Part shown: positions 42,611 to 57,672 of the stretch, piece by piece | How the letters are laid out: each line of letters opens with the position of its first letter | Numbering within the stretch: position 1 is the first letter of the stretch | NCBI GenBank assembly: GCA_958009085.1 | Contig: OY253674.1 | Coordinates: 930,001-994,000, forward strand | Reading direction: 5' to 3' | DNA from: Protoeuglena noctilucae | Taxonomy: Eukaryota | Length of the DNA: 64,000 bases | Program-made: the position numbers and the translations under genes | The notes under the pieces: generated by a model | What the model was told of the DNA's origin: nothing | Databases searched by the model: none | The model's input: only the letters and a program-made list of their open reading frames with translations

Positions 42611-44973
42611 CTATTCGGGCTCGTAGGGTGCCGGTTCGGGCGGTGGGGCAGGTGGGGCGCCGTCCATCGGCAGGGGAGGCTGCGCCTCGTCGGGCGGCAG
42701 GGGCGGCATGTCGCCAGGCGGCGGGGGCACACCTGCAGCAAGGGTGACGAAGCTCGCGTTCGCACTGGCAGCGTGTCAGACCGACCAGCGACTCCAGCCC
42801 ATATCAACACACATGCCCAGAGACTACGACATCTGCGATCCTCACTTGGGTCGTGGGGGTAACCCTGACCGTAGGGCCCTGGCGCGCCGTACGGTGGCCC
42901 ACCGTAGCCGTACCCCGGCCCGCCGTACCCAGGCCCGCCGTACCCTGGTCCGCCGTACGCGGGCGGCGGCGTCCCGTAGCCGCCTGAGGAGGGGGGCATG
43001 CCGTAGGGCCCAGGGGGATACCCAGGAGCCGGCGGCATGGGGGGCGGACCCCCGTAAGGGGGAGGCGGCATGCCCGGGCCCCCGTAGCCCCCGGGGGGGT
43101 ACCCGGGGGGCCCGTAAGGTGGTGGTGGCATGCCGGGACCACCCGGCGGGCCCATGTGCATGGGCGGGCCGCCCGGGGGCCCGTACGGCATGCGGCCGTG
43201 GGGCCGCGGCCCTCCCCCGTCCGCGAACCCCAGCCCCGGGCGGCCCCGCCCTCGCCCGGGGGTGCCCCGACCCGGGGTCCCCGGCCCCGGCATCCCGGGG
43301 CCCGGCTGCGGCGGTCCCCCGAACATGGGCCCGGGCCCGTCGTCCCGGCTCTCCCGCACGTTGTAATGCACGTCCGTCTTCCCCGCGATGGGGTCGCCGC
43401 CGAGCTCCTTGAGGAAAGACTTGTATTCGTCCTCCATCGCGCCGGGGTCCTGGCCCGTGAAGCGCGCCACATCCCGACGGTACTGCTCTGCAGGCGCAAA
43501 CGATGGGGAGGGGTGGCGACCGTGCGCCGCCTGAAGCAAAAGGCAGTGACGCGTACGCCGCCAGACAGGGCGGGATTGAAGGCTCACCCTGGACACGCTG
43601 CTGGATCTGGGTGGGGAGGCGGTAGACGCCCTCCATGCCCGCGGCGCCCGCGCGGCTGGGGTCGGACATGATGAGGGCGAGGGAGTTGCGGGTGTCCGCG
43701 AAGCCTTGGTCCCCGGCCCACGTGCCGTTGATCTTGGCCAGTTGCATGAGCTGCTGCCGCTTGTGCACGTTCATGTCCTCGGGCACGGGCGTCAGCAGGG
43801 GCTCGATCACCATCGTCGCCCGGTCGACCTGGTCCCACTCCTCCCCGGACACGTGCACGTGCAGCTCCTCGTTCCACCCGTCGGGCAGCCGCCCGTCCGC
43901 GCGCCGCGGCGGCAGCGACTGCCCGTCCTTCTGCGACCCCTTGCCGCGCACCGTGACCTTGGCCCCCGTCTCGAGCTCCAGGCGCTTCTGCGTGTTGCCA
44001 CGAGGCCCCAGGATCATGCCGATGAAGTTGTACCCCGGGTGGTCCTTGGCGGGGATGTAGAGGATGACGTCCTTGGTCGGCGGGCGAATGCCGTTGGGGA
44101 GGTTGTGCCGCCCGGGGTCGTAGTACCACGACTCGTAGAGCGACTGCTTCTTCTCGTACTCGATCTGCGACGAAGGGCCAAGCGCAAGCGGTCCGGCGGG
44201 GGTGTCTTGTGCACCCGGTGGGCCGGCACGGGCTGCAGACGCAAGGCCAGGGAAGCGCCCTGCCCGCTCCAATGCCCACCTTGGTCTTCACGCGATCCTC
44301 CCGGGTATTGGTACGCTCCCCCGTGTCGGGATCGTAGATGGGCGGCGGGGACGGGGAGCGGTGGCGGGCCGAAGGGATGGGGAGGGCGTTGTACTGGATC
44401 ATCTTGTTGCACTGCAGAGCAAGCGGCCGTGGGGACGTCTCGTCACCGCGAACGTGCACAACAACGGATGCGTGACGAGGCCTCGCTGAGAGAGGGCGCG
44501 CGGCGCAGGACGGCCCACCTGCTCAACCCGAGAGTGGAGGGCGGCTGCCCGGGCCTTCCGAGCCACCACAGGGTACATCGGATCCGGCCCGAATCGGGTG
44601 CCCTCGCGCGGAGGCGTGGGCGGCCTCGACTCCTGTTGCGGCGCCACGGGCAGGATGGACGTGACAACCGACTTGAGCTTGGCGCGCAGGTGCTCGGGGA
44701 TCTGCGTGGGGTGCGAGGCCTGCCAGTCCGCGGCCCACCGCAACTCGCACCGATGAAACGGCGAGCAGGACGAGGCGGCGGAAGACGGCTCCGGGCACAC
44801 GTCCCAGCGGTCCCGCCACGTGGCCGCACCTGAGGGTTCAGCCCGTCGTCCCCCGCGATGATGGCGCGCTCCTCCTCGGGCTTCTCCTGGACCCTGCTCG
44901 CAAAGGTGCGATTGAAGGCCGCAGCCGCCTCCGCCGCGGCGGTGCGGGCGTCGCCGCCCCATCTAGAGGACAT
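42611..44973 (-). CDS. SF1: Splicing factor 1 / branchpoint-binding protein
   Basis: RSPSPPPIYD...RTNTRE, KH domain YNFIGMILGPRGNTQKRLE, QUA2 HKRQQLMQLAKING, MEDEYKSFLKELG, Pro/Gly/Tyr-rich tail. Confidence 0.95.
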
Positions 44974-45288
44974 GGCGGGCCCCCTGCCCGCAGAATCCCT
45001 TGCGTGCAAACGTTGACAATGAAACGACCGCGGTGCCTAGCTGGCGAGCTCTGGGGGGGTGGCGCGGGACGCGTCAAGCCCCAGCAGCCGTGAGTAGGCC
45101 TTTACGACGGCTTGACTTCAGAGATCGAACGCTAACATTGAGATCGGGACCGGGGGCGCGTGTGCAAAAAGCAGGATGGTGTCAAAACTGAGCTGATGAG
45201 CAGTAGAGCACGTTTGGCCAGCGCAGGCGCTTATGGAAGCTATGGAAGCTATCTTGACAGTGACTCGGCGGGGACGAAAGGGCTGGCC

Positions 45289-46713: not shown

Positions 46714-49132
46714 ATGAACTTTTTGGAGGCGACGCGGTTCGTATGGCGCTTCGGGGGCTCCCAGGTCCACCTGTGTGGATCGTTCACGCGCTGGGTGGAG
46801 ACGGTGCCCATGCACCCAGGTGCCGACCGCGGGGGGCACGTGCCGGCGCCCTGCGCCCTCTGGACCCGCCGCGCTTCACCCCTCGCGCGGCGTCCTCGCA
46901 GTGGAGCACCAGCCCGGCGTGTTCACGGTGCTGGTGCACCTACCCCCCGGGTACCACCAGTACAAATTCATCGTGGACGGGGAGTGGCGGCACGACGAGA
47001 CGCAGCCCTTCATGCCCGACCCTCTGGGGAACGTTAACAACTGGTTGTTTGTGCGGCGGACGGACTTAGACCATGCGCAAGGTGCGTGGTCCTACCTCGG
47101 GAGCACTGCCTGTGGCGGGACGTCCCCGGGGGCCGCCCCACCGCCGGCTCTCGGCGTCTTGGCCGCAGTCGCGCAGTCCATGCAAGCGCAAGTGCCGCAT
47201 GAGGACCAAGCGATGTCGGGGCACATGGGGGTCCCGCGGGAGGGAGGGCAGCCAGGAGGGTCTCCAGAGGACTGCAAGGCGAGGGGGCGCGGAGCCCGCC
47301 ACTTGCTGGAGACGTTTCTGGCAGCACCGGACACGGCCTTTTGCATGCCCCTTCCGCAGATGGAGGACGAGGAGGAGCGGGGCGTGGTGGTGATGCCGGA
47401 GAACGAGCCGGAGGCGACCAAGCGCAAAATCCTCGACTTCCTCAACTCCCACACCGCGTACGAGCTGATTCCAGGCGCGTCAGCGGCAAGCGGGGATGGG
47501 AGGCCATGCTCTGGCCTCGTTCCTACGCCCCAGGGGCACCCCCGTTTGCCAGCCCATGCCTTCACTTCAACTCCACAGCCGCGCTCGCAGAAAGCGGCAA
47601 GGTGGTGCTGCTGGACACCAAGCTCCCCGTGCGGCAGGCGTTCCATGCGCTGCACGACCAGGGCGTCACGAGCGCGCCGCTGTGGGACTCGACCAGCCAC
47701 ACCATGGTGGGCATGATCTCGGCATCAGGCGAGCGTCGGTGGCGTTCGCTCACCGTGCGCGCTCGACACGCCGTGCGACGATGTCCATTTCACGGACTCT
47801 ACGATGGCTCGCTTTTTGCTTGCCGGATGATGTTAACCTTTTTCGCTCCTTAACGAAGCCCTGAGCACGGCCCGCCGTCGCTCGCCCTCGCCCCCCCGCA
47901 GCTCGCCGCCGTCCATCGTCCCCGCCCCTCTCCTGCCCCCAGATTTCATATCGCTGCTGCAGCAGATGCGGCAGACGGTGTCTGCGAGCGGCAACCCCCT
48001 GACGGAGGCGCAGATTGACAGCTTCACCATCCTCGACTTCCGGGAGCAGTGTGCCGAGCAGGGCAACCCCCCGCGGCCCATGGTCTTCGTCAAGCCGGAG
48101 GACTCGCTGCGGGTGGTCGTGGAGACGCTGCTCAAGTCGGGGTGCTCCTCAGCGCCCATCCTCACGGGCGACCCCGGCACGTCCACCGACGGGCGCATCT
48201 GCGAGCTCCTGCACGTCGCGACGCTCTCCGGCGTCCTCGCGTGCCTCATGCGCCACTTTCGCGCCTCCCTGGCGAGCCTACCCCTCCTCAACGCCCAGAT
48301 CAGCGAGGTGCCCCTGGGCGCGTGGCAGGCCGCGGCCATCGGCGGGCCCGACAACCCCGCGCCCGTGACGGGCCCGCGGGCCAAGGGGCAGATCGGGGGC
48401 CGCATGGTCCTGGAGGAGCTCTACACGGTGCACCCCAACACTCCCGTCACGCGGGCGCTGGGCCTCCTGGTGGAGCGGGGCGTGTCGGCTCTGCCGGTGG
48501 AGGACGACCACGGGCACCTGCTGGACATCTACGCCCGCGCCGACATCACCCTGCTGGCCAAGGGCAACGCCTACACCCAGCTGCAGCACGCCGAAGTGAC
48601 GGTGGCGCAGGTCCTGGCCCTGGCACAGATCCCCAACCCGCAGCCGGCCCAGGCCGCAGGGCCGCGTGTCGTCGGGCACGGGGGGCTCAGGCGAGGGCCG
48701 CGGATGGGATGGGGCGCTCGTGGCTGACGTCTGTTGGACAGCGCGACTGTGCGGCAACCTCAGGGGCGTGAGGGTCGGTTTTGGTCTCTCCGTCCCCGCA
48801 GCCAAGCCATGGCGGGGCAGCAGGGGCCGCAGCGTTTCCACATCGTGGGGGGGGCGCAGCCGCAGGGCCCGGCCCCGCAGCCCAAGCAACGCGTGTTCAC
48901 GTGCACGCGGCGCGACACCCTGAGGAGGTGGGTGCCTGCCCCGGTGGGTGGCAATGGCGTCACTCCGACAGCCTGAGCGCTCTTACTGCCGCATCACCGC
49001 TCGCTCGCCCGCAGTGTCATTGAGAAACTGAGCATGCCCGGCGTACGCCGCGTCATTGTTGTGGACCCGGACACGCGGCGGGCCGAGGGCATCATTTCTC
49101 TGTCGGATGTGGCGGCCTTCATCCTCATGTGA
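46714..49132 (+). CDS. SNF4: SnRK1 betagamma subunit (CBM48 plus CBS domains)
   Basis: FVWRFGG...[34 protein letters not shown]...[25 protein letters not shown]; seven introns. Confidence 0.95.
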
Positions 49133-49333: not shown

Positions 49334-52300
49334 ATGGATGTGGTCAGCGACGCGAGTGCCTTTGGGCGCGACCTCGGGTCCGAGGCGCGCGCTCGGGCAG
49401 AGGATGAAGTACGTTTCCTCGTTGAAAATATCATGGGCGGCAGCGCGACGCTGGAAGGGCTGACGGAGCTTCAGGAGGCCATCCGTGCCAAGCGTGACAA
49501 GGTGCGCCGTCCCCGCGCGGCTGAGGGCACGCCGGACGGCGCCATGACTCGCACCTGCAATCGTGTTTACCAACGCGCGCGCCTGTCCGATGCTCGTCTC
49601 GTCCTCTCCGCAGGTGGCGGGAGACGTTGCTGCTCGGACAGTGAGCGCGTACCGGGCTCCTTTCGACCTCATCCGTTGGTCACCTGCCTTCGATGCTGAG
49701 GTTGAGGGCATCTTCACGTCTTTGCGCGTCACTGGTGTCAAAGGCGAGGCATGTGCGACAGCGATTCGACCCACGCCCCTGCGCAGCGTCAAGGTCTGCG
49801 CGATGGGTCCCAAATTACCTTTGGCGGATCCTCTCTGTCCTATTCTACGCAGAGGTCGACCAGTTCGTGGCGAGGAGTGCCGCGCGGCACGGCGAACTCG
49901 TCGCGCAGCTCGTCGCAGCCCACGCGCGCCTCGCCAGCGCGAAATCTGCCGCCGGCCTCAGCCGCGAGATCGATCACGTGTCCGCTCTTCTCAAGAATGG
50001 GGCGCTCTTGGGTGCTCTGGACGCCCTGGACTCCCTGCGCGAGCGCTGCGCCTCCCTTCCCGAGGACGGGGCCGAGGTGCTTCGCTCGACCTGCGACGCC
50101 CTCCAGCGGCAATGCCAGGCGGAGGCAGACGGAGCGCTCGGAGCCATGCTGCGCTGGGATGACGTCAAGTCCTGCCTCAAGGTTACTGTGACTTGGCGCT
50201 GCGTCGGTGCTGCTGGGCACTCGCGCTCGCGCCGAGTGGCCCGTGTGCTGCCCCGCGCTTGTGCTCGCCCTCATCCCCCTGCGCTCATCTTTCTTCCACC
50301 GCGTGCACTCTTACCCGACGCTTGAAGCCCTCGCCGCAGATCTCCTCATCTCTCCAAGGCAAGTCGCTCCCGGGGGGGTTCCAGGAGTTCTGGAACGTCC
50401 ACGACCGCCTCGGCACGCTGGCGGCCCGGCTGCAGGCCCTCGGATCGCAGATCCAGGGCCGGCTCCTCCTCCCCGTGCTGCGGGGGGCCCTCAAAGTTCG
50501 CGTGGTCGAGGCCGGGCATTCCAAGGCGAGCGGCCACCACGACGCGCTCTCGCGCACGCCTCGGGCGCACGGCTTTGCCGACCTGCGCGCGCGAGCGCTG
50601 GCCCTGTCTGTATGCGCGCGCAGGTGGTGCAGTGGGCAGAGGAGGAGGCCCCGCCCCCCGCTGCGTCCTGGTCTGCCCGTGCCGCGTTCCTCTCCCGCAC
50701 CGCGGCATCCCTGGGCCCCGTCACGGCCGCCGTGCACCAGGTGGCTCTGTGCGGCAACCCCACCCTCGTGGCCGTCGCCTTCCCGGACCTGGCGCAGACC
50801 GCGGCAGCCGCCATCCTCCACGACCTCCTCCACCCGCTCCTGCCGGGCACGTCCCTGGACCTGTTACGGGCCCTGCCGCCGCGGGCCGTGCGGGGGCTGA
50901 CTGGGTGCTGGGTGGCGGGCGACGGGGGCGGCGGGGGCAAGGGGCGTGGCGCAGTTGAGGCAACAGGGCGGCTCCGGGGTGGGGATGCTGAGGTGCTGCG
51001 TCTGCGGGGGGGCGGCACGGGAGACGACGCGTGGGAGGGGTTCGGGTCCGGCTGGGGCGCCGTGACAGGCGGGGCTGGGGGAGACGCTCCCGCCCAGGGA
51101 GGTGCAGGGGAGGGCGGGGAGGGGGTGGCACGCGCACAGGGGGCGAGGGCGCAGGAGGGCTTTGGCGGGGGGTCTGGAGAGCCCAGCAGCGCGCCCGTGC
51201 CGGCGCCTGACGGGGCTGGGTTTGGGGACTCCTGGGGCGTTTCTGACAGCGCGTGGGAGGCCGTTGCCACGGGGACCGGGGGATCCCAGGAGACGACGGG
51301 GAAGGTCCCTAAGGGACTCGCCATGGAGATCAAGCGGCCGCGAGGAGAGGGAGTTGGGGAGTTGGGCCGTGGCGCCAGGGAGGTGAAGCGGCCGGGGTCG
51401 CGCGCAGATGCGGCGGTGGTTGGGCAGACGGTGAACACGAACACTGCTGAGTCGGACAAGCGGGGGGCTGAGTCAGGGGCTGGGGACCGGGCGGGCATTG
51501 CCTTGCCCGGTCACGGGGCGCCGGTCTCAAATAGCAACGGTAACCAGCAGCAGGCGACAGTCGGCGCAGCGGGGGCATCCAAGATCCTGCGGCCAGGGTC
51601 CAGACAGACGCAGGCGCGCTCGACCGGGAGCGCATCGGTCACGGGACAGCCTGGCTCACGGGGCTCGGCTGACGCCTCGTCAGCCATGATGAGCAGCGAG
51701 GGGCAGGATGTGGCGTCGCTGGGTGTGTCGACGCAAGCAGTGGGGGGCTCTGTTCGACTGGACAACCCACTAGAGAGCTCCACCGTGGGCGTGGTGAATG
51801 AGTCGGAGGGTGGGGGCTCAGGGCCGTGGGAGGCAGTGGGTGTGGGAGGGGAGCAGAGGGGCAAGGCGGGGGCAGGCAGCAGCGAGATCCACGGCGGGGG
51901 TGGCGACTCGAGTGGCGGAGGCAAATTGGCGGCGGCACCCCAGCTGCGAATTATCCGGCCCAAGAAGGCCACGGCTGGGCTGGGACTGGGGGCGACGGCA
52001 GCTGGAAAGAGAGGTAGTGACGGTGGACTGCAGGGACCCGGAGAGAGCAGCGCTGGTCGCGGAGCTCCGGCGGCTTCGAGCAGCGGCAGAGTCGTGGCGA
52101 CTGGGGGTGCGGAAGGGGGCAAGGCGGGGTTGGGGGCGTCAAGAGGGCTGCCGCTTGGGTCAGACCCTGCGGTGGTAGTTGGGGGGGTTGCCAGCCCTCC
52201 CGGGGACGAGGAGGAATGGGAAGACGACGGCTGGGGTCCAGAATGGGACGGCGGAGGTGGCATGGGCACGCAGGAGGCGCCCCTGAGCAGCATGCGTGGT

Positions 52301-55107
52301 GGTGGGGTTAGCGACGGGAGGGGTCTGAGCCTGGGGGCTGAGTCGGGCAATTTGGGAAGCACAGGGGTCGAGACGCTGGGCACGGCCCCCCCAGGGCTGT
52401 GGGTGGGGGCGTCGGCGGCTGACGAGGGTGCGGCGGCTGGCGGTGCGGGCGGCATGGCCAGTGGGGGTGACCCAAGCCTCTTCAAGGGGTTGCTGGGGCG
52501 GTTACAGGGAGCCGGGCCATCGCGGGTGGCGGCGCCGGCGGGGGGCTTCGCGGCGGTGCGTGCCTTCAGCCGCGCGCAGTCGGTCTTCACGGGCATCGCG
52601 GGGAACGTGGCACGGTTCATGGAGAGGGCCAGGGAGGCCGAGAGAGCGCCGCCGGGTGCGGGTGCCGGGCTCGAGTCGCTAGCGGAGCAGATGGCTCGAT
52701 TCTTTGGGGATGAGGGCGAGGGGGAGGTCGGCGAGGTGGGGGACCGGCCCCGGGGCGAGAGCGGTGGGTGGGAGTCGGCGCTGGGTGGGACCGGGGCTAC
52801 AGGGGTGGATACGGCGGAGTGGGGCGAGAGGGAAGGGTTTGGGGAAGAATGGGACGGCGTGCGGAGAGCGGTGGATGCCATGACGGGGGCTGTGGGGGGT
52901 GATGGGCCCAAGGGGGCTGCCGCGGCAAGCACACATCCTGCGCCTTTGCAAGGGGCGGCACCTGTGATGAGGGAGGGCGCAGTGGGCGCGGCCGGTGCGA
53001 GCGAGCCCTGGCGGGGAGACAGGGGGGCTGAGTCGGGCCACGGCGGGGCCAGCGTCAAGCAAGGCGTGGTTGGGGGAGCGGTGGAAGTGACCCGGAGTGC
53101 GCAGGTCGCGGCTGTGACTGTGGGCAATGAATCCACGAGTGCCCGCGATGCTGAGACTCGTGGGACCCAGCGACAGGCGGGCAGCACGGGGGAGAGGCAG
53201 GCGGGCACGCAATCGTCTGTAGTCAGCGCAAGGGAGAGGGGTCCTGACAGGCCGGGGGGTGCGGCGATGGCCGAGGGCGGAAGTGAAGGCTTCGGTGCTC
53301 ATGCGGCGTCGGCGTTTGCGTCGGTGGGAGACGCGACTGGGGCAGAGGCCCCCGTGCAGCCCGAGGTGGACCCTTGGGACGCTGCCGCGGCACGGGTGTG
53401 GATGAGGGAGACGTGCGGGGCATCGGTGGACGTCGGGTCGTTCGCAGCGGAGGCTGAGGCGGTGGAGCAAGTGGCGGCGGCGCTGGTGGCGGCGCGGAGG
53501 GTGGATGCGGCGCTCGGGCCTCTGTGCCCGGCCGGCGAGGACGGGCATGGGAGCGACTTGGCGCAGGGCCTGCTCGAGATGGAGCAGGACCTGCTTGGGC
53601 AGGCGGAAGGCGAGGCAGCAGGACGCGCTTGCTTGCATGTGGGGGTCGTGGCGCCGTGCATTTGGGCAACCGTGCTCCGTTCCGGTTTCCGCTGCAGGCC
53701 AGGTGCTCGAGAAGGCGGGCGAGGCCGTGCAGTCGCAGGGCCACAAGCAGTCGGTGTTCTTCCACGCCAGCGGAGGCGTGGTCGTGTCCCAGGTGACGGG
53801 GTGTGCTTTGGAGGCGGCTAGTCAGCCACGCGACCCCGGGTTGCACAGCCAGTACCATCGTACGTTCCTCTGCCCCCTCAGACGACCGTGGCCCTCCTCT
53901 TCTTGGTCACCCGCGCCACGGCCTGCGCCGTCCTGTGTGGCACGCCCCTCCACCGCGCCGCCGCCCTCCGCGCCCTGAGCCACGTCTGCGCCCTCTTCCG
54001 CACCGTGCCGTACCAGACACACGAGGAGGACTTCGGCGACCCGCGCCTCATGATGCTCTACGCCAACGACTGCGAGCAGCTCGCGCGGCGGTGCGCCGAC
54101 CTGGCCAGGGTGGCGCTCGTCCCCCAGCAGCCGGGCGCCGAGCCGGCGCTGGCGGAGGTGGCCGAGGCGGCCCAGCGTGGCTTCCACAGCCTGGAGCTGT
54201 TTGCGCGGGGGGTTCTCAAGGCTGAGCTGCAGCGGCAGCGCGCGCGTGTCGGGGCGGCGCTGGACATGGCTGGCGGCTTCTGCAACGTCGACCGGCCGGC
54301 GCAGGGGGAGCGGGCGCGTGGGGCGGTGGACGAGGCGCTGGCGTGCGTGGCCCAGGTCACGTCGCAGTGGTCCAAGGCGCTGTCCCCCCGCATGTACCTG
54401 GTGGCGGCGGCAGACATGCTGCAGTTCCTGTGCGGGCGCATCGTGGACGAGTTGCTGGAGATGGCAGGCGAGTCATAGGCACCCCACTCAGTGAAGTGCG
54501 CGGGAAGTCTGTCTTGGGAGCTGTGCGGCGTGAGTTGCGTGCGCAAAAGCTACATGCCAGATATGGCGGCGCAATGCAGTCCCTGTCTCCCACGTACGCA
54601 GACATTGGGGCGGACGAGTCGGATGCCCTCCATGGCACGCTTCTGCCGCTAGTGCGGGAGGGGCCGCTCAGGATGGGGTTCGTGCCAGACACGCAGCCCC
54701 ACGAGGAACTCCTGGCGCGGGCGCCTGCCTACGACAAGCTGCGGTGCGTGGCGCGGGTGCTTTGCACGGCATGGCCACTGCGGTCTGAAGGTCTCCGGAC
54801 CATCATCTGGCACCTCAACAGGCTGTTGCTCATCACTTCGCCCCGCTCATTGTAGATCGCTGTCCGCGCCTCTCCTCGCAGCCTGCTGCTGGCGATGCTG
54901 GCAGCCCGAATGACCGAGGTCGTGGACATGTGGACGCGGGGGGACCTGCGGCGGGCGGGGTTCTCGGCCGCAGAGGTGTGCGGGGTGGTGCGCGCGGTCT
55001 TCACCGACTCGCAGCGCCGCGCGGACGCCATCCAAATCATCCAGGGCGCCGCCGGGGAGGGGGAGCCCCGGGACGCGAGGGGGGCGCTGCGACGCATCGC
55101 GATGTAG
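49334..55107 (+). CDS. ZW10: ZW10/Dsl1 CATCHR tethering protein with a very large internal low-complexity insertion
   Basis: C-terminal PRLMMLYANDCEQLA, LDMAGGF, LLEMA/DIGADES and GFSAAEVCGVVRAVFTDSQRRADAI are typical of the ZW10 C-terminus. Confidence 0.85.
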
Positions 55108-55360
55108 CACGGCAGCACCCGTCCTGGCTTGAAGCAGGCGACACTGGAGGGCGCGCGGTTGAGTCGCCGGCTCGAGCTTTGCATAGCGAAAAGTCATTCA
55201 ATGCCGCCGATGCCAGCATAAGCCCAGCGCAACACTCAGAGGTCTGCCATGGCGCTGCCAGACGGGCCCCCTTCGTCCACCATCTCGTAGTCGAGGATTG
55301 CCCCTGCGAGCGAGGAGAGCGCGAGTGAGTCGTTGAGCAGGCGATGGGTGGCACGAGGCG

Positions 55361-57244
55361 CTACCTGCGCCACCCCAGCCCCATGTCACCCGGCCCTCCC
55401 TTGCCCAGGCGCGACATCATCGCCTTGTCCTTCCGAGCAAGCTTGTCCAAGTACTCCCGGGAGAAGGCGACCACGCGGTCCAGAGCCGCCACCTCCTCCG
55501 CCGCAGCGACGGCAGTGGCGATCCTGAGAGGGCCGGGCATGCACGGGGGTGTGTCCACACGAGTCTCTCTCACAGACCCGCACCCGCCCCCTGGCCCGCA
55601 CTCTCGCCTGCTCTGCATCTCGGCCAACACGTCGGCCCCGAGCTCGTCCACCGACGCCCCCAGGTCGACCGTGCCCGTCCTCTTGTCCACACGAGCGCGC
55701 ACCATCCCCCGCTGTACCATGGAGACCAGGAGCTTCTCCACGCGCGCCTCAGACTCGGCCCCCACCTTCGCCGCCATCTCTCCCACCGACTGCGAGTAAG
55801 AAGGCATCTCGTTCATCCACCCCATGCGCTTGCCACACTGACCGACGCGACGTGCCACGCGCGCGCCACGTACCAGGGTGAGGTATGTCTGGGCCACCTG
55901 CTGCACGCGCTTGGCCTCCACGGCCTCCACGACGCACCCCACGAGTCCCCAGTCGCCGTTGGCCACGAACACCTCCGCGTGGGCGCTGGCGGCCGCCTGG
56001 ACTGCCGCGGGGTCCCCGCGCTGGTACGCGGCGGCGAGCTCGTCGTAGGGCTTGGAGTGGGTGGCCAGGAAGCGTTGGACGGGGTGGGGCACGAACGCGG
56101 GGAGGGGCTGGACGACGCCGTGGGCGAGGAGGGAGGTGAGGATGTACTTGCGGTGGGCCCACGGGGCCACCGCGTGGGGGCACTGGGCGGGGACGGTGAG
56201 GGCCATGAGGAAGAAGTGGACGGCGCGCTGGGTGCAGGGGAGAGGCAGGTGCGGGTGAGGGGGCAGCGAGGTCTGCTGACGTGGGTTCCAGGGCACAGCC
56301 AAGCACCCACCTGGTAGTCGCGGAGGGTGGCGCAGAGGGTGCCGGCGTGCAGGCCGTAGAGCGCGACGTCGAGCGCAGTGATGCCGGTGGCGGCGACGCG
56401 CACTTCCGTGACCGGGCACAGCGCCAGGCGCCTTGCAGCCGCATAGCAGCGCGAGGCCAGGGCCAGGCGCATGACCATGGCGTGGGCGGGGGTGAGGACG
56501 TGGGCGCACGGCTGGGAGCCGTTTGTAACTTGAAGCTTCTCCACGGCGCTGAGCAAGAACGGAAGGGCCTCCCGGGACCTGCAGGCCGGGGTGCGCGGGC
56601 GTTCAGCAGCGATGAGCGTGGACCAGCACGGGCCCCCAGCGCGCGTGGTGACCCACCTTCCATGCTTGATGGCCAGATCCGTGGCGGCGAGGCAGACAGC
56701 ACGGAACTGCGGCGCCGCGAACTGCGCGCTAGGCGCAGGAATCGCTCCGATGACACGCTCGAGAAGGCCCAGCGTCTCCGGCGGGGGCCCACCGGCAGAC
56801 CAGCAGGGAGCACTGACAGCGAGATCGCACACAAGTGCAGCCCTGACCCTGCGATGAGCACAGAGGCGATCAATCGGCGGCACCGCGCGGCCCCTGCAGC
56901 AACCTTCGCAATCACGATGATGGGTTACCCTTGCTTCTTGTCCGCGAGGTCGAGCTCCCCAATGAGGGCGTGCAGATTCACGGTTGCTTGATCTCTTACG
57001 GGCGCATCGACCCCCTGCGGTCCGCGGGAGACGGGGGCGTGCAAAACGAGCCACGGGGGCGTGCCCTCGTTTTGCAGCTCGCTTGTCGCACGCCGCGTCG
57101 TATCCTGTATCTAGTGAGGCGCACATGAAAGCGTCGTGTCACCTTTGCGAGCCTCTGGAACTTCTTGCGCACATCTGCGCTCTCGCTGTAGAAGGACGCG
57201 TGCAGGACCTCTTGCAGCCTCTGCTGGGCACTTGGGGCCGCCAT
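55361..57244 (-). CDS. CSN3: COP9 signalosome subunit 3
   Basis: LTPAHA...LALASRCY, HRKYILTSLLAHG, KPYDELAAAY, DWGLVGCVV...QQVAQTYLTL, PCI winged-helix VRARVDKRTGTV. Confidence 0.85.
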
Positions 57245-57672
57245 CGCGGCACGCCTCGATGCGTTTCACTATTTGCCTCTTCGGGTGATGGCTCTGGCTC
57301 AGGAAAACGAGCGTGCTGCCGTTGCAGTGACGCGGCCGCGCTGCGCTGCTTCAGATTCTGGGGTTCCTCCGCTGGGATGAAGGCGAGCTGAAGGAGGGAG
57401 TATGAGGACAGCGAAGTGGCCCAGGATCTCCAGCCACCCAGGCCGCCCGGGGCTGCAAGGCCACGGCACGGCGCGTCTGGCGCCTTACAACGGCGCTCGC
57501 ACTACTCAAGTAGCCACTCGGTCCACCAGCCCGTCAGTTCGTGCCGAGCTGTGCCGCATGTATCTATGACACGGCCAAAGAGGGGCACATAAGGGCGATC
57601 CATTGTGTGCTTCGGAGATTAGGGGCCCTGCGCGGGCTCGCAGGCGGGCCGTGAGCCCGACTGTCGCTGAGG

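Follow-up and report, generated by a model that had tools for sequence, protein, structure and literature searches.

Introduction

In yeast, Dsl1 of the ZW10/Dsl1 family carries a lasso (residues 378-488) that is an insertion into domain C (PMC9915479; here and below, sources are cited for their accessible portions). At the apex of the Dsl1 complex, which is anchored on the endoplasmic reticulum (ER), singleton and di-tryptophan motifs of this lasso bind alpha- and delta-COP (10.1101/2020.04.07.029496, PMC7145657, PMC10866661). The accessible text of two reviews describes the lasso as missing from plant and metazoan homologues, and does not settle in what way such tethers recognise COPI (PMC4868844, PMC4206994). 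Here we describe a ZW10/Dsl1 gene of the marine green alga Protoeuglena noctilucae whose product is split by a very long insert carrying acidic tryptophan motifs. The gene lies in a window of 64,000 nucleotides (nt), positions 930,001 to 994,000 of contig OY253674.1 (GCA_958009085.1), and all positions below are those of this window unless another sequence is named. A first-pass annotation had read positions 50890-53400 as a disordered insertion of ~830 amino acids (aa) forming a giant COPI lasso, either convergent or retained. The reading we favour, with a probability of about 0.55, is that the insert is a convergent, expanded COPI-catching loop that would work like the yeast lasso from a neighbouring, non-homologous site.

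Tryptophan motifs and position of the insert

The tryptophan motifs quoted in the first-pass annotation were all found in one reading frame between 51023 and 53363: DDAWEGFGSGWG at 51023, GFGDSWGVSDSAWE at 51218, DEEEWEDDGWGPEWDG at 52205, GGWES at 52763, AEWGEREGFGEEWDG at 52814 and EVDPWD at 53363. Net acidity around the insert tryptophans was 31 against 3.4 expected, and an acidic residue directly followed tryptophan (+1) 8 times against 1.8 expected, values reached in 0/10,000 shuffles each. The acidic context that had been claimed is therefore present. Di-tryptophan motifs of lassos have the spacing W-x(1-6)-[WF]; non-overlapping acid-W-x(1-6)-[WF] motifs numbered 4 in the insert against 1.06 expected, a count reached in 124/10,000 shuffles. 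On a scoring matrix built from 252 tryptophan sites of 52 fungal-type lassos, the mean score of the insert lay above that of shuffled versions (3/3,000), and its two highest scores, 7.9 and 7.3 bits, were those of W808 and W803. Both acid-flanked di-tryptophan motifs and singleton motifs are thus found in the insert.

The surrounding sequence is of low complexity (G 23.6%, A 15.7%, S 8.8%, Val 7% and no Tyr), a composition that predicts disorder. It is mildly acidic overall (D+E 11.5%, K+R 8.8%), with the acidity gathered around the tryptophans. Searches of the insert against Pfam and the ESM Atlas gave no family match and no usable Atlas match, respectively.

Alignment and AlphaFold comparison did not bear out a placement at the Dsl1 lasso. 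The homologue profile breaks for the insert at position ~343-348, while fungal-type acidic tryptophan clusters fall at ~395-450, and at profile positions ~410-432 the algal ZW10 shows a deletion instead of an expansion. The start of yeast domain C corresponds to residue ~74-76 in the model of P0006, a transcript-derived protein covering the C-terminal part, that is, to aa ~1255, and the insert ends at aa ~1207. The yeast lasso interrupts domain C just behind the first helix of that domain; the algal insert lies ~70-75 residues upstream and two helices earlier, on the domain-B side, and the lasso-equivalent site holds a short loop (Table 1). With this mismatch, only the convergent half of the earlier "convergent or retained" proposal survives, and because the two loops occupy different sites in the protein, the algal loop most likely evolved separately from the fungal lasso.

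Among 113 homologues, an acidic tryptophan cluster was found at the site of the insert in 1 and at the fungal site in 67. The single case, P0010 (ZW10 of Pedinophyceae sp. YPF-701, 875 aa), is also the nearest full-length relative found. Its loop of ~60 aa contains 4 tryptophans (DGWDADWGWDE, DGWSDDE), whose fungal-matrix scores range over 5.6-15.4 bits. The site of this loop was taken from hmmalign, hmmsearch domain ranges and inspection; MAFFT misaligned the loop. In a FastTree tree of 46 sequences, two of which were entered without their inserts, P0010 was the sister of the algal ZW10 within the green-algal clade (0.991 and 0.990). The short pedinophyte loop at the same site lends some support to the convergent reading. 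Of the other green-algal ZW10 proteins examined, those of Tetraselmis (P0009, P0015) and Myrmecia (P0012) have no acidic tryptophan loop at either site.

Two further proteins show such motifs elsewhere. In P0061, an unnamed sequence of the green-algal clade, the fungal lasso site holds a short acidic tryptophan loop, and such loops may therefore have arisen more than once. P0140, a ZW10 of the fungal clade without a central lasso, carries acidic tryptophan motifs in its C-terminal tail (residues 777-807), possibly another relocation of the motif.

Table 1. Features of the ZW10/Dsl1 locus and of the RINT1/TIP20-like gene; window positions unless another sequence is named
Feature	Position	Strand	Remarks
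ZW10/Dsl1 gene	49334..55107	+	9 exons, 1,615 aa; ATG-to-stop open model, from reading splice signals
Exons 1-5	49334-49501, 49614-49743, 49853-50181, 50340-50525, 50624-53609	+
Exons 6-9	53698-53792, 53882-54467, 54602-54743, 54882-55107	+
N-terminal helical body, aa 1-348 (CATCHR N/A/B part)	49334..50854	+	profile match aa 38-348
Gly/Ala-rich low-complexity insertion, ~aa 349-1207, in exon 5	50855..53431	+	profile break, single copy
Ubiquitin-C-terminus-like RLRGG (aa 387-391) and VLRLRGG (aa 395-401), insert start	50969..51013	+
First acidic Trp cluster, W408/W415 and W475/W482	51023..51259	+
Four [IV]xRP[GRK] basic motifs	51326..51964	+	4 vs 0.08 expected, 0/10,000 shuffles; post-hoc pattern
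Strongest lasso-like motif DEEEWEDDGWGPEWD (W803, W808, W812)	52205..52252	+	top two fungal-matrix scores
More hydrophobic segment, aa 887-968, possible amphipathic helices	52469..52714	+	not significant
Third acidic Trp cluster, W987, W1004, W1014	52763..52858	+
EVDPWD (W1189), end of insert	53363..53380	+	in spliced RNA contig X2 record 12; start of P0006
C-terminal helical body, ~aa 1208-1615: end of domain B, domains C-E	53432..55107	+	AlphaFold2, fold matches
Fungal-lasso-equivalent loop, ~5-7 residues (aa ~1279-1285)	53733..53753	+	helix 66-98 then short loop
RINT1/TIP20-like gene	L062 1657-8405, on past 10500 (G000:C7:438156 onward)	+	weak Pfam match

Gene model, identity and coding status

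The source genome comprises 27 contigs (26.3 Mb, ~68% GC). In the ZW10 gene model, introns 3, 5, 6, 7 and 8 appear as joints in RNA contigs, intron 4 is represented there by loose ends that match, and introns 1-2 were inferred from splice signals and homology. GC-AG introns account for 4 of the 8 (at 49744, 50526, 53610 and 54468), three of them with RNA-contig support. Such introns, frequent in this gene, also occur in the RINT1-like model (2/11; L062 4871 and 5238).

The ZW10 identity assigned earlier to the flanks was confirmed by several lines of evidence. Pfam ZW10_C2 matched the last exon (E 1.8e-10), its sole match in the genome, and P0006 matched the same family above the cut-off (72.8 bits, E 4.5e-20). 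Transcript-derived proteins P0001 and P0006 are identical to the last 260 and 434 aa of the model. A phmmer search gave 294 relatives, with the best 150 listed. A profile of 31 lasso-less homologues matched aa 38-348 (E 8.7e-22) and aa 1265-1595, and removal of ~aa 349/353-1200/1208 joined these into one unbroken match of 263.5 bits covering profile positions 25-757 of 761, the N-terminal half included; the insert-free protein is ~760 aa long. AlphaFold2 modelled P0006 with a predicted local distance difference test score (pLDDT) of 87.4 in an aligned run, used in place of a poor single-sequence fold (pLDDT 51). The best fold match was human ZW10 (7QPG chain W, Z 26.3, root-mean-square deviation (rmsd) 7.1, 362 aligned), and yeast Dsl1 also matched (8EKI, Z 20.2; 3K8P_C, Z 20.0, rmsd 4.5, 291 aligned). 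Matches of IcmE to the last exon were short repeat matches and were disregarded. The gene is a ZW10/Dsl1 family member, a CATCHR subunit of Dsl1/NRZ, and the only one detected in this alga.

The insert itself is real and almost certainly coding. The ~830-aa stretch described earlier is present and, by profile, slightly longer, at ~850-860 aa (50855-53431). It is stop-free, as had been noted, and exonic, lying entirely inside the 2,986-nt exon 5: between 50890 and 53400 the coding frame has 0 stops and the other two forward frames 24 and 18, and Markov simulations of orders 1, 2 and 3, 1,000 for each order, produced 0 stop-free frames. The strongest G skew of the window falls on the same positions, in agreement with its description as G-rich. 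The insert is single-copy in the genome. Its 9 short inverted pairs include no terminal repeats, and 50030-55300 is covered in one piece by a DNA contig from a different run (X5). A spliced RNA contig of 1,640 nt (X2 record 12) begins at 53081, so that the 3' ~300 nt of the insert are included, and crosses four introns. No joint skipping the insert was found among the RNA contigs of three RNA runs. These observations speak against the idea that the insert is spliced out, or is a transposon or assembly artefact. Among the pieces listed, RNA covers at least 1,048 nt of the insert's 2,478; bins 51532-51953 and 52798-53008 lack cover in 3/3 runs, although such holes prove nothing. When 10 open frames were looked up exactly, 1 was found; it is a genomic gene call whose two members are unspliced and near-identical and offer no substitutions for judging selection.

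Proposed function

We propose that a short acidic di-tryptophan loop arose at the site of the insert in the lineage common to the alga and the pedinophyte YPF-701, independently of the fungal domain-C lasso, and that it was then stretched ~14-fold in the alga by a Gly/Ala-rich spacer. The loop separates two helices and lies on the hinge's domain-B side. Judged from helix order, a site two helices before domain C is probably near the apex of the tether, whose complex would be anchored on the ER. From there, the di-tryptophan motifs (best W803-W808-W812) would most likely bind delta-COP's mu-homology domain (MHD) and the singleton acidic tryptophan motifs the C-terminal domain of alpha-COP. Three spaced clusters would then allow multivalent, longer-range capture of COPI vesicles and perhaps their uncoating. 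If this is true, acidic-tryptophan coatomer capture arose at least twice, the capture loop is free to change its place on the tether, and both its reach and its valency can be tuned.

Both predicted binding partners are encoded in the genome: delta-COP with its MHD, and the C-terminal domain of alpha-COP, whose own linker has GADAWGGEED, resembling DDAWEG and DSAWEA of the insert (DAW[EG]). A RINT1/TIP20-like gene was also found; its RINT1_TIP1 Pfam match is below the cut-off (E 4.2e-5, 12-exon model), and we take its hallmark residues to support the assignment. In this model, a 764-aa core is followed by a canonical GT-AG intron and a predicted in-frame exon of at least 880 aa. The predicted tail is Gly/acid-rich, with 39 tryptophans against 16.9 expected and 17% D/E. 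Its tryptophan contexts did not exceed composition on the fungal matrix (343/2,000 shuffles), and an exon of the RINT1-like gene gave no usable ESM Atlas match. Beyond one stop after the tail lies a 698-codon open stretch with 21 tryptophans.

A bolder version, which we consider distinctly improbable, is that this lineage rebuilt COPI capture independently of fungi and over two subunits, the ZW10 loop and a 900-1,500-aa acidic tryptophan tail of RINT1/TIP20. In that version the loop would be opened at VLRLRGG by a protease specific for ubiquitin tails, and the motif would be reused in unrelated disordered proteins as a ubiquitin-free processing signal.

Several observations count against a convergent COPI-catching loop. 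Its displacement from the yeast lasso site is one. The number of tryptophans is at chance (16 against 14.2 expected from base composition), so that only the acidic context of the earlier claim stands out, and 4/14 insert tryptophan sites are positive on the fungal matrix, the others being weaker than fungal or P0010 motifs. The grouping of P0010 with the algal protein unites two long branches, and no close relative with a long insert was recovered: word-based searches with exon 7, and with the algal alignment among proteins of 1,571-4,485 aa, found none, which is weak evidence, and a metagenome locus scan with P0006 gave no relative. Three Pfam models detected no NAG/Sec39, although the controls for these models were uninformative. 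The RNA evidence is partial, since no contig covers the insert from end to end, only run X1, which also has unspliced pieces, bridges its 5' border, and all three RNA runs come from one study. Finally, long disordered exons are common in the genome (7 in 600 kb), and length alone is no evidence of selection.

Alternative explanations

The alternative that survives best, although we consider it unlikely, is mostly neutral growth of a tolerated surface loop, in which at most one ancestral tryptophan cluster would matter and the rest would be spacer without COPI function. A 600 kb genome sample held 51 frames of at least 500 aa, 11 of them plausibly coding and 7 of these low in hydrophobic residues. 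Such a background, the chance-level tryptophan count and the 10/14 tryptophan sites below zero on the fungal matrix fit neutral expansion. However, the acidic context of the tryptophans is far beyond shuffles, and they form three clusters apart from one another. In the 7 background frames the number of acidic tryptophans is at most 4, whereas it is 10 in the ZW10 frame and 16 in the RINT1-like tail, which is predicted for another subunit of this complex. Long disordered exons are ordinary in this genome; acidic-tryptophan-rich ones are not.

We find it distinctly improbable that the acidic tryptophan motifs bind another partner, such as ATG8, and that the loop is a platform for autophagy or other adaptors on the ER tether. 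The pattern acid-W-x-x-V resembles the consensus of Atg8-interacting motifs and LC3-interacting regions (AIM/LIR), and valine stands at +3 in 4/14 insert tryptophan sites (29%; WEAV twice, WDGV and WGAV) against 7% valine in the insert as a whole. However, this is a small count noticed after the fact, and neither the best motif nor the pedinophyte loop, both of which match motifs of fungal lassos, has WxxV.

A slightly slimmer chance attaches to the loop being a processing site, which would be compatible with COPI capture: a protease of the ZUFSP type, specific for ubiquitin tails, would cut after G391 or G401, and the C-terminal half would then begin with the loop as a free tail of ~800 aa. 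Two RLRGG stand at the insert start, and at least two occurred in 1/20,000 shuffles, for a pattern picked after sighting. VLRLRGG-coding sites number 17 in the genome against 3 in the reversed control; 2 are ubiquitin fusions (L014, L015), in which the motif ends the ubiquitin moiety. The motif also lies inside unrelated long disordered frames, as tandem pairs in L018/L019, L023/L024 and L025/L026 and further in L021, L016 and L027. A Peptidase_C78 gene (L029, G000:C3:1210934-1211935, minus strand) is presumably ZUFSP/ZUP1-like by its motifs. One fungal-type lasso, P0077, has MRLRGG just ahead of its DDDGWGW motif. ZUFSP enzymes cleave RLRGG-AMC, but the accessible part of that source shows peptide-AMC cleavage only and no comparable natural substrate (PMC8776766). 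Against processing, LRLRGG-coding sites are not enriched genome-wide (98 against 97 in the control), and the P0010 loop has no RLRGG.

That the stretch goes untranslated, whether as an intron of great length, as a transposon or through misassembly, is very improbable. A possible acceptor lies ahead of 53361 and the RNA cover of the insert is patchy, but the spliced contig holds 53081-53607 and so runs past that acceptor. The independent DNA contig, the single copy without terminal repeats and a coding-type base bias, with 0 stops against 15-22 in other frames, likewise speak for translated sequence.

The WG/GW Argonaute hooks offered as an option in the first-pass annotation are scarcely credible: the five WG/GW dipeptides in this Gly-rich disordered region compare with 6.5 expected (8,474/10,000 shuffles reach 5) and the genome assembly gave no Piwi match, in a search that found prokaryotic Argonautes in 2/14 controls, and no PAZ match, with an uninformative control. 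RNA silencing machinery may have been lost in this alga.

Other features of the locus and genome

The repeated KRPG/LRPG/IRPK-type motifs reported earlier for the insert were recovered (Table 1). Two basic K..GLG motifs (51983-52005 and the 52121-52140 region; aa 718-725 and 771-775) were found against 0.16 expected (101/10,000), and in our view they recall ArfGAP2/3 coatomer-binding stretches. An amphipathic helix resembling an amphipathic lipid packing sensor (ALPS) at aa 887-968 was considered and rejected, its hydrophobic moment (0.49-0.51) not exceeding the 95th percentile of shuffles (0.52). A second C78 gene, L030, is UfSP-like in appearance.

The ZW10 gene is flanked upstream by what we take to be an SF1/BBP gene (42842-45000, minus strand) and a SNF4/AMPK-gamma gene with a carbohydrate-binding module (46714-49132, plus strand), and downstream by presumed genes for CSN3 (55240-57250, minus strand) and a PRP22-type DEAH helicase (57670 onward, plus strand).

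Comparison with known systems

No report of an algal lasso was found in searches of the literature, although the texts and supplements of Travis 2019 and Suckling 2015 may survey non-fungal lassos. Human ZW10 (7QPG chain W), plant MIP1 and the ZW10 proteins of Tetraselmis and Myrmecia share the CATCHR fold and the insert-free length with the algal protein. They differ from it in having no acidic tryptophan loop at either site (Tetraselmis, Myrmecia) or, according to the accessible text of reviews, no lasso (plants and metazoans; PMC4868844, PMC4206994). P0010 is closer, as a sister sequence with an acidic tryptophan loop at the same site, but its loop is far shorter, and identity in the C-terminal part is 34%. 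Fungal Dsl1 lassos, as represented by that of S. cerevisiae, resemble the algal loop in being disordered ZW10/Dsl1 insertions with acid-flanked singleton and di-tryptophan motifs (PMC9915479, 10.1101/2020.04.07.029496). The algal loop differs from them in its position on the domain-B side rather than in domain C, in being ~8x longer than the yeast lasso, in its Gly/Ala-rich and only locally acidic composition with added RLRGG and [IV]xRP[GRK] motifs, and in its green algal host, in which COPI binding is predicted from sequence. By position it falls outside the fungal lasso class, yet it looks built like a member of it.

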